Origin: Patescibacteria group bacterium
GTDB taxonomy: Bacteria; Patescibacteriota; Patescibacteriia; 2-01-FULL-39-33
DNA: 32,000 nucleotides
NCBI GenBank assembly: GCA_041649575.1
Contig: JBAZMW010000001.1
Span: 1-32,000, forward strand
Direction: 5' to 3'
Below are positions 4,676 through 24,295 of this stretch, piece by piece; the stretch's first letter is position 1, and each line of letters begins with the position of its first letter. The notes under the pieces were generated by a model. It searched no databases and was not told the DNA's origin. It saw nothing but the letters and a program-made list of their open reading frames with translations. Both the position numbers and the translations under genes were made by a program.

Positions 4676-5239
4676 TCACTCGGGCGGGCGGTTGTTCGCT
4701 CGGACGAAGAAAGTCTTTTGGTCGGTGGCGTTGTAGGTGTTATTGGGGTAGGTGCACGCTTCCACCACCCAGACCATCTCTTTGCCGTCGTCTGCCATCT
4801 TTCTTGTGAATTCTGGCTCGCTCTCCGGTGTTGTGGGTCTGATATCGACGAAGGCGATTCGCTGGTTGGGCAGACTCTCCGCGCTCTCGGCGGGGTTTAG
4901 GCCGAAGGTCAAGTGCCATAGCCCGATGGTTTTGTCGTATTGCGGCTTGCCAGCGACCTCGCGCCAGCCGAGCTCCGTGATTCGCAGGCCTAGGGTCGAG
5001 GTGTCCTCGCTGGTTGTGGAGGCATTGGTGGCCACTGGCGCTATTTTGTTGGCCAACAGGTTTGTCACAAGTACGCCGGCAACCGCCACAATAAGGCTGA
5101 GCCCGACCACTTTCGCAATTCCCCATTCGCGGCGCGGGTCTTCCTGTCTGTTGTCCCTTTCTGCCCCCAGACAGGCGACGCCAATGGAAAGCAACACAGC
5201 GATGAAGTAACCGATCACTAATAAAACATCGTGATCCAT
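4676..5239 (-). CDS. GC-rich orphan membrane protein (two predicted N-terminal TM helices plus a ~110-aa extracytoplasmic domain)
   Basis: It is the longest ORF in the GC-rich block. A good SD precedes the start (aaggagagagaggcATG). The TM segments are VLLVIGYFIAVLLSIGVACLGA and VVGLSLIVAVAGVLVTNLL. I recognise no family. Confidence 0.6.
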   Translation of the reverse strand: MDHDVLLVIGYFIAVLLSIGVACLGAERDNRQEDPRREWGIAKVVGLSLIVAVAGVLVTNLLANKIAPVATNASTTSEDTSTLGLRITELGWREVAGKPQYDKTIGLWHLTFGLNPAESAESLPNQRIAFVDIRPTTPESEPEFTRKMADDGKEMVWVVEACTYPNNTYNATDQKTFFVRANNRPPE

Positions 5240-5321: not shown

Positions 5322-5350
5322 ATTATATAATATATAGATACTTTTGTCAA
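5322..5350 (-). promoter_or_regulatory. Consensus sigma70-type promoter driving the 4676-5239 ORF
   Basis: The minus strand reads TTGACA (5350-5345), a 17-nt spacer, then TATAAT (5327-5322). It lies in AT-rich DNA just outside the GC-rich block and predicts a ~75-nt leader. Confidence 0.5.
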
Positions 5351-5491
5351 TAAAAAGCATTATTTGGCCATACTAATTTTAATAGAATTATTTAAATTTA
5401 GATAAAAAAACAGCCTTGAATTTTTTAATGCTGCCTTTTTTCTTTTGCGTCAGTTTTTCTTTTTATTAAAAAAAGAAAAGTGACAAGTATT

Positions 5492-6319
5492 TTATTTTCG
5501 AGAAAGTAAAAAAGTATTTTTTAGCAGGCAGGCTACGGTGAGCGGGCCGACGCCGCCGGGAACCGGCGAGACCCAGCCGGCAACCTCAATAACTTTAGGA
5601 TCGACGTCGCCGACAATTTGGCCGTTTTTTCTATTAATACCCACATCAATGACAATAGCGCCCGGTTTGACCATTGATTTTTTGAGCGCCAGTGCTTGGC
5701 CCAGGGCAATAATAATAATATCAAAATTTTGGGAGTCAGTCGGAAGGGTCGTGCTGGTTTTTATTTTTTTGATTTTCAGATTTTTTTTGAGATTTTTTTT
5801 CAGTCCTTGCAAAAAAACATTACTCTTGCCGATGATTAACGTTGATTTGTCGGATAATTTCTCGTTGGTGTTGGAAAGTAATTCTGAAACAGCGGCGACG
5901 GTTGGTGGAATAATTTGAGAATTTTTGTTTTGCGGGTGAAAACCGTCAACGTCCTTGAGAGGCGAGATGGCCTTGATGATTTTTTCAGCCCCGAATTTTT
6001 TTGGCAGTGGCAATTGGATAATGATGCCGTTGGTTTCCGGGTCTTGGTTTAGAAATTTTATCAAACTAATCAGCTCGGCTTCGGAAATATTGGGATAGCA
6101 ATCCTGGTTGCAAAGATACTTATGAAAACTAAGACCCACTTCCAGGCAGGCCTTTTCTTTAAGCTGGATATAGATTTTTGAAGCCGGATCGTCGCCAACC
6201 AAAACTGCCGCCAGGCCGGGCGTCTGGTTGGCGGCAATAATTTTTTTTCTCAAATCCAGTTTGATTTTATCCGCCAGCGCTTTTCCGTCCAGGATAACGG
6301 CGGATTTTTTGGTGGCCAT
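5492..6319 (-). CDS. folD: Bifunctional methylenetetrahydrofolate dehydrogenase/methenyl-THF cyclohydrolase
   Basis: It has VLVGDDPASKIYI and the C-terminal PGGVGPLTVACLL. It abuts glyA directly. Confidence 0.9.
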   Translation of the reverse strand: MATKKSAVILDGKALADKIKLDLRKKIIAANQTPGLAAVLVGDDPASKIYIQLKEKACLEVGLSFHKYLCNQDCYPNISEAELISLIKFLNQDPETNGIIIQLPLPKKFGAEKIIKAISPLKDVDGFHPQNKNSQIIPPTVAAVSELLSNTNEKLSDKSTLIIGKSNVFLQGLKKNLKKNLKIKKIKTSTTLPTDSQNFDIIIIALGQALALKKSMVKPGAIVIDVGINRKNGQIVGDVDPKVIEVAGWVSPVPGGVGPLTVACLLKNTFLLSRK

Positions 6320-16432: not shown

Positions 16433-16498
16433 TGCTTATTTAATGTTGTTTTTTAGAAAAAAAGCACATAGAAGAAAATTGCAGTTATAATAATTAGT

Positions 16499-16704
16499 CT
16501 TACTTTCTCTTTCTCTAGGAGAAAGAAAAAGCTAACAAAAAGAAAGAGTCGCGAGCTAAATGAAAATTTAGACAAAACAGGGTTGTTCTCGCTAATTTTA
16601 ATAACTCACAAAAGCCACCAGTAAACTGGTGGCTTTTGCTCAAACAAATTAAAATTTACGCTCGAACCCCGCCTGTTTTGTTGCTAAATTTTCATGCGCT
16701 CGCA
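16499..16704 (+). repeat. Structured repeat, copy A (polypyrimidine/polypurine hairpin plus a long imperfect hairpin)
   Basis: It aligns end to end with 23670-23856. Hairpin 1 is ctttctctttctc-tag-gagaaagaaaaag. The long hairpin has arms 16551-16602 and 16647-16703 (gcgagc...atgaaaatttag...acaaaacagg / cctgttttgt...ctaaattttcat...gctcgc). The apical loop carries an extra hairpin, aaaagccaccag-taaa-ctggtggctttt. Confidence 0.8.
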
Positions 16705-23387: not shown

Positions 23388-23663
23388 ATGAAAATAGTTT
23401 TAGCTGCAAAACCAGGTACGACAATTCAAGTCAAAACCGGCAGTTGGCGCGAGCGTCACTGGCCGGAGATTGATCATGAGAAATGCATTGGTTGCGCTCT
23501 GTGTGAAAAAGTTTGTCCCGAGGGCATTTGTTTTTCTACTGGCGAAAAAAACAAAGCCGACAAGATTTTTTTTGAAAAAGATTTGGACTATTGCAAGGGT
23601 TGCGGTCTGTGCGCCGAGGTCTGCCCGGTGAAGGCGATTAGGATGAGGGAGGAGGGGAAGTAG
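23388..23663 (+). CDS. porD: Pyruvate/2-oxoacid:ferredoxin oxidoreductase, delta (2x[4Fe-4S] ferredoxin) subunit
   Basis: It has two cluster motifs, CIGCALCEKVCP and CKGCGLCAEVCP. Confidence 0.9.
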   Translation: MKIVLAAKPGTTIQVKTGSWRERHWPEIDHEKCIGCALCEKVCPEGICFSTGEKNKADKIFFEKDLDYCKGCGLCAEVCPVKAIRMREEGK

Positions 23664-23669
23664 ATTGGC

Positions 23670-23856
23670 TTTACTTTTTCTTTTCTAGAAAAGAAAAAGC
23701 TAACAAAAAGAAAAGTCGCGAGCTAACATGAAAATTTAGACAAAACAGGGTCGTTCTCGCTAATTTTAATAACTCGCTCACTAACGTTCGCTCAAACAAA
23801 TTAAAATTAACGCTCGAATTCCGCCCGTTTTGTTGCTAAGTTTTCATAGGCTCGCA
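23670..23856 (+). repeat. Structured repeat, copy B
   Basis: It is collinear with 16499-16704. Hairpin 1 is ctttttctttt-ctag-aaaagaaaaag (perfect). The long-hairpin arms are conserved and the apical region is shorter and different. It starts 7 nt after the porD stop. Confidence 0.8.
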
Positions 23857-23869
23857 AAAAAGTAAAAAT

Positions 23870-24220
23870 ATGAAAGGAATATGGGAAGAATTTATAAAGC
23901 ATAATTTAGAGACATACCATAAAGGTACTATAGTAAAAATGAAAGATATAGGCAGAAAAGGTAAATTAATTTTTAAGTTAGTTAAGGATAGATTTTATTG
24001 CAGACAGTCTAATCTACCGCAAAAAGTTTTTTTTATTGATAAGCTAAAAAAGTTAAAACCAGAAGGGAGGATAGCTTATAGAAAGTTTTGGCACAATGGT
24101 GATATTGAATATCGTTTGGGTTATTATGTAATCAGTCAGTATGGTAAACGAAAAGGGCATTGGATGTTTGGTCAGTATAATCCGATTATGCCGCTAAGAG
24201 ATTTGGAAAAAATTTTGTAA
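23870..24220 (+). CDS. AT-rich basic orphan protein (116 aa) inserted between porD and porA
   Basis: A 116-codon open frame in roughly 25-30% GC DNA is unlikely by chance because stop codons are AT-rich. The product is Lys/Arg-rich. I see no RBS and recognise no family. Confidence 0.55.
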   Translation: MKGIWEEFIKHNLETYHKGTIVKMKDIGRKGKLIFKLVKDRFYCRQSNLPQKVFFIDKLKKLKPEGRIAYRKFWHNGDIEYRLGYYVISQYGKRKGHWMFGQYNPIMPLRDLEKIL

Positions 24221-24295
24221 GAGGCAAAAAATAAAGGAATCATAGATAAAAATTTTAAAATTGTTTGAAAATTGAAAATTTTTAAATTAAAAATT

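Follow-up and report, generated by a model that had tools for sequence, protein, structure and literature searches.

Four classes of intrastrand triplex motif were defined by Holder et al. (2015, Nucleic Acids Res, PMC4666352), who extended work by Hoyne, Maher and co-workers (2000, as cited there). Class II is composed of a pyrimidine arm, a purine arm and a reverse-Hoogsteen purine arm; its complement belongs to the pyrimidine motif and has the Hoogsteen strand in first place (class IV). Such motifs exceed chance in bacterial genomes; in RNA, purine-motif triplexes are not formed and pyrimidine-motif ones are (PMC4666352). The Escherichia coli repeat BoxC/PIT/TMECO is confined to intergenic DNA, shows neither strand bias nor association with transposons, folds into a triplex when the strand is isolated, and occupies loci that are more rearranged between strains than control loci (PMC4666352). 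Here, a repeat is described from a Patescibacteria group bacterium, in a window of 32,000 nucleotides (the whole stretch of DNA that was analysed; positions 1 to 32,000 of the forward strand of contig JBAZMW010000001.1, assembly GCA_041649575.1). The element appears to be an A/T-rich, hairpin-fused variant of the described intrastrand-triplex repeats, common to two phyla. The window holds copies A (16499-16704) and B (23670-23856), as well as a third, short copy (5435-5486, - strand).

Copies A and B align from end to end, as a sequence-only reading of the window had claimed, with 82.5-83% identity (E ~3e-53), and the segment gctaacaaaaagaaa is common to both, also as stated there. That reading had counted the element twice, which is an undercount given the third copy in the window and about 15 copies in the genome. 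It had also described a conserved linker behind the first hairpin; this segment is better understood as the turn followed by a mirror of the purine arm, a third strand, with all three strands varying in concert, and the core of the element accordingly has the form of an intrastrand triplex motif. Along the + strand, the pyrimidine arm (Y) comes first, then its pairing partner, the purine arm (R), then a turn of 5-7 nt and a mirror tract (R'), an arrangement of class II, with triplets of the A·A-T and G·G-C types. The - strand reads third strand, Y and R, corresponding to class IV with U/T·A-T and C+·G-C triplets.

In copy A, Y (ctttctctttctc, 16503-16515, +) forms 12 of 13 pairs with R (gagaaagaaaaag, 16519-16531, +), which is the Watson-Crick partner of Y and the mirror partner of R'. 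It is followed by the turn ctaac (16532-16536, +), the centre of mirror symmetry and identical in relatives and Clostridia, and by the third strand R' (aaaaagaaagag, 16537-16548, +), an exact mirror of R that reads gagaaagaaaaa when reversed. Outer pairs join 16500-16502 with 16533-16535 and leave C16532 bulged. In copy B, Y (ctttttctttt, 23674-23684, +) makes 11 of 11 pairs across the loop ctag with R (aaaagaaaaag, 23689-23699, +; triplex finder and sequence), and the turn ctaac with R' (aaaaagaaaag), again the mirror of R, occupies 23700-23715 (+); relative to copy A, both R and R' are altered in step. These pairings of hairpin 1 agree with those first proposed. The mirror repeats are thus written GAGAAAGAAAAA-GCTAAC-AAAAAGAAAGAG in copy A and GAAAAGAAAAA-GCTAAC-AAAAAGAAAAG in copy B, with block lengths of 13 / loop 3 / 13 / turn 5 / 12 and 11 / loop 4 / 11 / turn 5 / 11, respectively. 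The third copy is a solo triplex module supported by nhmmer (E = 1.4e-8), the triplex finder and its sequence, ttgtcac-cttttcttttttt-aat-aaaaagaaaaa-ctgacgc-aaaagaaaaaag, and is without the long hairpin that follows the core in copies A and B. Two classes of core are seen, GAAAAG-CTGACGC-AAAAG and GAAAAAG-CTAAC-AAAAAG. In copies A and B and the third copy, the third block mirrors the purine arm, the stem has at least 8 pairs and the three blocks are consecutive with loops of about 1-10 nt. The cores have 11-13 triplet levels in all, 2-3 of them G·G-C.

The triplex finder (Y, R and mirror-R as 9-mers, with at most one mismatch each) returned 15 sites in the host genome and 0-1 in each of five shuffles, and 13 of the 15 belong to the repeat family. 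When the host genome, its relatives and Clostridia were pooled, 167 distinct modules were obtained, in which the run lengths match across all three strands: the register T5CT3/A3GA5/A5GA3 is found in 75/167 modules and T5CT4/A4GA5/A5GA4 in 29/167, and six rarer registers (4,3; 4,4; 4,5; 6,4; 3,3; 3,2) are also concordant in all three strands. The outer run of R tabulated against the outer run of R' gives 82/1/0/33, with a p-value that is descriptive only because the copies are related. One Clostridial variant has an extra G in all three strands (CTTTTCTCTTT / AAAGAGAAAAG / AAAAGAGAAA), and a quite different sequence still keeps the rule (CTTCTTTTC / AAAGAAG / GAAGAAAA). Direct observations are thus the design in three parts, the concerted variation of these parts and their occurrence in excess of chance. 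Mirror images are not copied by a polymerase or other copying process, nor are they read by a dimeric protein. As they are not made by copying, selection on the three-strand fold is the simplest reading, and the core is very probably a selected three-strand motif.

Like BoxC/PIT/TMECO, the element has Y, R and mirror-R blocks on one strand with short loops and a complement that gives the pyrimidine-motif class, and it is likewise intergenic, multi-copy, highly conserved, patchy among close relatives, found at variable loci and without transposon link. All copies in the host genome are intergenic, and the module occurs above its scrambled frequency. TMECO is G/C-rich (CCCTCNCCC..GGGNGAGGG..GGGNGAGGG) and proteobacterial, whereas the core described here is A/T-rich and occurs in Patescibacteria and gut Clostridia; the TMECO consensus proper (CCCTCNCCC N3-6 GGGNGAGGG N3 GGGNGAGGG) does not match it. 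Also unlike TMECO, the core is fused to a variable hairpin of 120-155 nt, usually abuts a stop codon and, in its Clostridial form, has an extra clamp helix. Similarly to H-DNA, R-turn-R' makes a homopurine mirror repeat of 27-29 bp, which is the sequence requirement of that structure; H-DNA is linked to polymerase stalling and instability (PMC11667243). The extra upstream Y arm on the same strand, dispensable for H-DNA, distinguishes the element from it and points to single-strand folding. A G-rich Y-R-mirror-R module was also found at C2:78643-78677 of the host and in relatives (L069, L086; two sites). Such modules, of which ccctcccctt-acg-aaggggaggg-tta-gggagggg is an example, come very near to the E. 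coli BoxC/TMECO consensus, including the TTA second loop, and in the relative G016 a G-rich module lies ~25 nt upstream of hairpin 1 in most copies.

Here it is proposed, with a rough probability of 45%, that the element is a structure-selected DNA repeat that would act when single-stranded and have orientation-dependent side effects on transcripts. This reading is favoured because of the conflicting orientation biases, the missing G-U signal and the missing transposase, which are all described below. R' would occupy the groove of the Y-R hairpin, alongside R, and the fold would form in single-stranded DNA during replication, repair or transcription. The folded DNA may hinder polymerases and favour slippage and illegitimate recombination; such hindrance and slippage would leave copies at gene ends with inserted accessory genes, and hairpins lost or swapped. 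This instability mechanism is a tentative proposal, with somewhat less than an even chance of being correct. In mRNA the element would be mostly a passenger, copy B being read through inside the por operon, and in the opposite orientation (copy A after trpS) the hairpin, the T-rich third strand and the apex hairpin probably help to end transcription. In kind, we infer a repeat of the BoxC/PIT/TMECO type joined to an ERIC/REP-like palindrome, without a transposase of its own.

Several points weigh against this proposal. TMECO forms no stable triplex in double-stranded DNA, and its in vivo footprinting was negative (PMC4666352). The A·A-T triplets are weak. The co-orientation of host copies with their neighbours (11/14 at gene starts, 8/14 at stop codons) looks more like transcript-level selection, and an exact 24-mer in two phyla needs horizontal spread or a shared binding partner, neither of which is named. 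Compositionally extreme neighbours amount to 6/28 genes (p = 0.055) and 5/14 elements (p = 0.11), values that are suggestive only; the earlier claim that each copy lies beside a compositionally anomalous gene is kept as a tendency and given up as a rule for all copies. Additionally, for the comparison of filled and empty sites, an exact-protein look-up returned only the same population, and the best porD in a metagenome scan was at 78%, with no close strain found in either.

The host genome (G000; 920 kb in 5 contigs, ~44% G+C, 98% complete) has about 15 copies by BLAST, nhmmer and inspection, the further copies that such searches had been suggested to reveal, and context counts were taken over 14 of them. 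Hairpin 1 and the A-rich stretch after it are common to all copies. The long hairpin has three interior subfamilies, is swapped for other hairpins in the copy upstream of an enolase-like gene, and is reduced to its last bases in two solo copies whose junctions differ. Its closure by GCGAGC and GCTCGC, part of the first description, was found in copy A (16552-16703, +; GCGAGC at 16552-16557 and GCTCGC at 16698-16703; supported by fold and covariation) and in copy B (23718-23855, +; 23718-23723 and 23850-23855). The fold energy of the element beats that of shuffles on both strands (+, z = -9.4; -, z = -12.0). In an alignment of eight copies, the outer long hairpin has two-sided changes in 10/30 consensus pairs, which answers the call for covariation in the affirmative, and in other genera the closing stem is GCTTGC/GCAAGC, GCGACC/GGTCGC or GCCACC/GGTGGC, all compensatory. 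The conserved unpaired motifs AACTC and TCAAAC persist as the peripheral helices vary. The long hairpin is a fast-evolving add-on, kept as a hairpin and sometimes deleted. Between the two window copies, the terminator-like apex is limited to copy A, as noted at the outset (aaaagccaccag-taaa-ctggtggctttt, 16610-16637, a hairpin that reads alike both ways); in the genome it is found only in copy A and its 93% twin (C2:160505-160710). The element is a non-coding, structured and asymmetric repeat, as originally described.

Traces of rearrangement between copies were also observed. The copy at C4:51533 has a duplicated 3' end at C4:51747; at C4:51711-51762 two different long-hairpin 3' ends stand in tandem, ttttcaagcGCTCGCA and, 20 nt on, ttttcatggGCTCGCA. 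The second belongs to another subfamily, as left behind when copies recombine or one is inserted into another. A degenerate copy whose triplex sequence differs (C2:170648-170914) and a full copy (C2:173139-173330) bracket pheS and a low-GC isocitrate-dehydrogenase-like gene.

As in the ERIC/IRU, REP/BIME, BOX and Correia repeats, the element is an imperfect intergenic palindrome of 100-200 bp, often in operons and in both orientations, with swappable modules, no coding capacity and a potential, orientation-dependent role as terminator or mRNA hairpin. It has solo and composite copies and no mobility gene of its own, as in ERIC/BOX-type mosaic palindromic repeats. It has no sequence similarity to them, however, and its conserved part is a three-strand motif and not a simple palindrome; the REP repeats differ from it in having a RAYT gene, and the Correia repeats and miniature inverted-repeat transposable elements (MITEs) in having terminal inverted repeats and a target duplication. 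Target-site duplications are missing from the flanks of the 12 copies examined, and terminal inverted repeats are missing too, the ends of the element being unrelated to each other (Y arm and TTTAC/GTCAC at the 5' end, GCTCGCA at the 3' end). The element is therefore not a simple MITE with terminal inverted repeats, in agreement with the first reading, and its suggestion of a decayed mobile-element end, with a match to an insertion sequence or MITE terminus, found no evidence. The MITE assignment was rejected on the same two features. Furthermore, Y1 transposase/RAYT/IS200 (PF01797), TnpB (PF07282) and IS110 (PF01548) are absent from the host genome. Y1 transposase is also absent from G016, G013, G023 and G010, and over the 34 genomes of the family its occurrence does not follow that of the repeat. 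The assignment to REP/REPIN with RAYT was rejected, PF01797 being absent from these five genomes.

The distribution of the element was followed with the 24-mer AAAGAAAAAGCTAACAAAAAGAAA. With at most 2 mismatches it occurs in 10/34 genomes and 7/19 genera of the Patescibacteria family, with 16 copies in G016, and in 0/390 genomes from other families of the class; the carrier relatives are labelled Candidatus Buchananbacteria. Among species-representative genomes, it is found many times in gut metagenome-assembled genomes (MAGs) with the labels Oscillospiraceae, Eubacteriales or Clostridia, and a single time in one that bears the label Bacteroidota. Three Clostridial MAGs that were checked have 11-21 copies per genome with one mismatch allowed, and in the order of one carrier only that carrier was positive among 201 genomes sampled. 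The 24-mer was not found in viral contigs, nor did the element match phage and plasmid collections by BLAST. A non-autonomous MITE- or REPIN-like mobile element that spreads horizontally, with an enzyme, encoded elsewhere or lost, that recognises the folded triplex end, would fit this patchiness, the identical 24-mer in two phyla, the high copy number in Clostridia and the near-identical subfamilies within a genome (copy A and its twin; the G016 copies). Such an element is nevertheless improbable: the ends are not joined by terminal inverted repeats, target-site duplications and the transposases named above are missing, viruses, phages and plasmids gave no matches, the only genes recurring beside ~100 Clostridial copies are housekeeping clusters, and three orthologous sites shared between genera (see below) suggest old copies.

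The Clostridial module is arranged as ccGCTTTTTCTTTg, a loop ending in GGCGC, the 24-mer and CGCC, followed by G+C-rich hairpins. R-turn-R' is closed by a helix of 4 bp, GGCG/CGCC. Of 109 copies, 81-96 keep this helix in Watson-Crick form, with covariation between its arms (GGCG/CGCC, AGCG/CGCT, GGCA/TGCC, GCCC/GGGC). This is what a clamp on the third strand would look like. Rfam returned only tRNAs from twelve Clostridial loci. Five of the Clostridial loci (L131, L134, L181, L195, L235) look like replication-origin neighbourhoods from N-terminal sequences (dnaN, recF, gyrB, parB, jag-like). In the Patescibacteria relatives, loci L016, L033, L055, L063, L072 and L077 have a palindrome, gtcattcccgc-N-gcgggaatccag, upstream of hairpin 1, which fits ATTCCC-N8-GGGAAT, the pattern of dRS3 repeats in Neisseria; in relatives this palindrome frequently adjoins the element and gives repeat mosaics. 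The record CAZEKG01 (G016; L123, L124, L141, L145, L165) is titled 'uncultured Gammaproteobacteria bacterium' and is placed in the Patescibacteria family, and its label looks wrong.

Gene names of neighbours are here read from protein sequences, unless a tool result is cited. In the host genome, 8/14 copies start 1-10 nt past the stop codon of a co-oriented gene (porD, glycosyltransferase, SIMPL-like, mraY, isocitrate-dehydrogenase-like, tsaD, folD and secA), and 11/14 have a co-oriented start codon 10-40 nt past GCTCGC (193 nt once). Copy B lies inside the por operon, which encodes pyruvate:ferredoxin oxidoreductase, starts 10 nt past the porD stop codon and is followed, 14 nt past its long hairpin, by the ATG of a 116-aa open reading frame (ORF); no terminator-like site was found after it. 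The third window copy starts 5 nt past the stop codon of folD (5492-6319). Copy A, its twin and C4:51533 are the three copies that run against both of their neighbours. Copy A follows trpS and the twin follows alaS, both aminoacyl-tRNA synthetase genes, and both precede GC-rich genes to which they are anti-oriented. The GC-rich gene after copy A is xylose-isomerase-like and has its own promoter (TTGACA-16-TATACT, 16432-16405, - strand, 11/12 matches, TG extension), which places copy A between the trpS end and a transcription unit of its own. On the - strand of copy A, the long hairpin is followed 3 nt on by TTTTCTTTTTGTT, and in this orientation the copy therefore probably ends trpS transcription; a stem as long as that of copy A is beyond what a simple terminator scanner can score. 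A role of the element as a supplier of a ribosome-binding function for downstream genes, suggested by their lack of Shine-Dalgarno sequences, was rejected, since only 12% of all host genes have a Shine-Dalgarno core.

The close abutment on stop codons leaves no room for a promoter of its own, which bears on the idea of a stand-alone small RNA gene family. The TATAAT at 16486-16491 stands where the sequence-only reading put it, TATAAT-like boxes also lie ~8 nt upstream of hairpin 1 in some relatives (L017 'tagtataat'), and the fold is strong. However, the box in copy A has no -35 partner and no full promoter was found on the + strand there, no terminator follows on the + strand, and a strand-specific G-U signal is missing. 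The stand-alone non-coding RNA that had been suggested is therefore extremely unlikely. The proposed comparison with Rfam was carried out, and no family matched the element: at the gathering threshold the window gave tRNA only, and with E up to 10 the best score for the element was 22.8 bits, with a cut-off of 55 bits.

Strand preference was assessed in two ways. Over 25 long hairpins, minimum-energy pairs include 31 G-U pairs for the + strand and 30 for the - strand, with ~1,150 pairs each, and alignment of the arms gives 34 G-U against 47 A-C, with no strand signal; the Clostridial clamp helix likewise has no strand-specific G-U signal. The t/c difference between the arms of the window copies is a real, single T/G change, and the hint of a plus-strand RNA once drawn from it is lost in the pooled counts. 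As for orientation, the element has both neighbours in sense in 9 host copies and both antisense in 3, in the relatives the counts are 11 and 7, and in Clostridia 10 and 28. On the hairpin side, the Clostridial - strand is sense to the gene in 55 cases and antisense in 27. No single transcript-level model fits the orientations in the host, the relatives and Clostridia.

These results also bear on a reading in which the element acts as RNA. The - strand would fold, in the manner of the ENE (element for nuclear expression) with its A-tract in MALAT1 or PAN, into a triple helix of U·A-U and C+·G-C triplets that could shield mRNA 3' ends from exonucleases, and the + strand hairpins would be intercistronic stabilisers or processing sites, as in REP. 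The strands of the MALAT1 ENE and A-tract come in the order Hoogsteen U-rich, Watson-Crick U-rich and A-rich. The same order and polarity of U-rich, U-rich and A-rich strands is found on the - strand of the repeat, as in the ENEs of MALAT1, MEN-beta, KSHV PAN and plant or fungal transposon RNAs. Like MALAT1, the repeat would have ~9-11 U·A-U levels, here with 2-3 C+·G-C levels interspersed. As in the ENE, a stem closes the two U-rich strands in Clostridia; the window copies have no such clamp stem, and a tight GUUAGC turn replaces the upper stem-loop of the ENE. The likeness is a resemblance only. In its prokaryote passages, a 2026 RNA triple-helix review has riboswitches and one group II intron as its sole examples from bacteria, with no ENE-like element there.

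An RNA role draws further weight from the pyrimidine motif being the one that forms in RNA (PMC4666352), from the covarying Clostridial clamp, from the mostly sense - strand in Clostridia and the co-orientation of host copies with the genes before and after them, and from persistent unpaired AACTC and TCAAAC among variable helices, as in structured RNAs. It is weakened by orientation biases that are opposite in the two phyla and not clear in the relatives, by a host sense strand that usually carries the purine-motif order, reported not to form in RNA, by the lack of G-U excess on either strand and by the absence of an Rfam match. Such a role is possible, and on balance unlikely. The more specific version, a bacterial counterpart of the ENE in which, on - strand transcripts, two U-rich strands (clamped in Clostridia by the covarying stem) grip the downstream A-rich strand through 9-11 U·A-U / C+·G-C triplets and protect mRNA 3' ends, is improbable; if true, two bacterial phyla would share, by horizontal transfer, a dispersed module for RNA stability, which would be new.

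The porD-porA junction (23663-24272) is a hot spot. In 16 of the 27 relatives in which both genes were found, the gap is 0-34 nt. The host has a 611-nt insert after the porD stop, made of copy B, the AT-rich 116-aa ORF and 36 bases, before the native spacer resumes, and ten relatives have unrelated inserts of 179-1058 nt, several of them starting with a lipoprotein-like gene (loci L080-L109). In G013, a triplex-type motif rich in G stands at the start of the insert (ttctccctcccttt-acga-aagggaggg-tt-gggg). The 116-aa ORF has homologues in 9/34 genomes, with a mini-element (G023), without the element (G019, where the gene follows pheS) or beside other repeats (G046). The ORF and the element thus do not form a unit, and a single travelling cassette of the two was rejected.

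Three orthologous sites have the element in more than one genus, with ~0.4 expected by a rough estimate: downstream of pheS (G000, G010 and G023, directly after pheS in the last two), downstream of secA (G000 and G011) and downstream of tsaD (G000, and inverted in G016). The proteins neighbouring these sites are 65-81% identical and the triplex core is nearly unchanged; the sites are either old copies with a near-unchanged core or preferred sites. Contigs of the relatives often end inside the repeat. Slippage and recombination at the palindrome are suggested by these breaks, by the solo copies and by the duplication of the 3' end at C4:51747.

Integron attC sites, which are thought to act as folded single strands, likewise border accessory genes and are imperfect palindromes whose ends are conserved and whose centre varies, and a recombination site of the attC or Xer type at cassette boundaries, folded as single-stranded DNA, has been considered here. 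In its favour, hairpin 1 has a bulged base as in attC, several copies lie between a core and an accessory gene (xylose-isomerase-like, the 116-aa ORF, DUF4145, and ORFs of ~376, 163 and 187 aa), and the site downstream of pheS has different accessory genes in different genera. However, the accessory genes are not bracketed by two sites, the homologues of the 116-aa ORF occur with and without the element or with other repeats, and many copies lie between housekeeping genes (tsaD-tsaE, upstream of eno). The R''-L''...L'-R' arrangement with its R''/R' core and the GTTRRRY 3' core are absent, the 3' end being GCTCGCA; no integron integrase is nearby, the only two tyrosine recombinases of the host genome (C2:252, C2:182861) are not adjacent to any copy, and the repeat adds a triplex module that attC lacks. 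Such a site is very unlikely.

Whether intrastrand triplexes form or matter in living bacteria is unsettled, TMECO being the best-studied case. More than 150 distinct copies in two phyla, with Y, R and R' changing together, give evolutionary evidence for a selected three-strand fold, and the covarying Clostridial helix that would hold the third strand adds to the argument. The core is also a compact test object of 42-46 nt for biophysics and reporter assays. In the streamlined genomes of Patescibacteria, the repeat flags junctions where accessory genes accumulate, and annotators of these MAGs have in it an explanation for "orphan hairpins" and contig breaks.

Two accessory genes were observed next to copies. 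An AT-rich gene of ~376 aa without a Pfam match (C1:165786-166880) stands between mraY and murD, which are normally adjacent, with a copy of the element directly before it. In the window, a perfect TTGACA-N17-TATAAT promoter (5322-5350, - strand), followed by the ribosome-binding region GAAGGAGAGAGAGG, precedes a GC-rich (57%) gene of 187 aa without a Pfam match (4676-5239, - strand); promoter and gene come immediately behind the solo triplex module, with its weak hairpin and T7 run next to it, and together they look like a self-contained accessory transcription unit.

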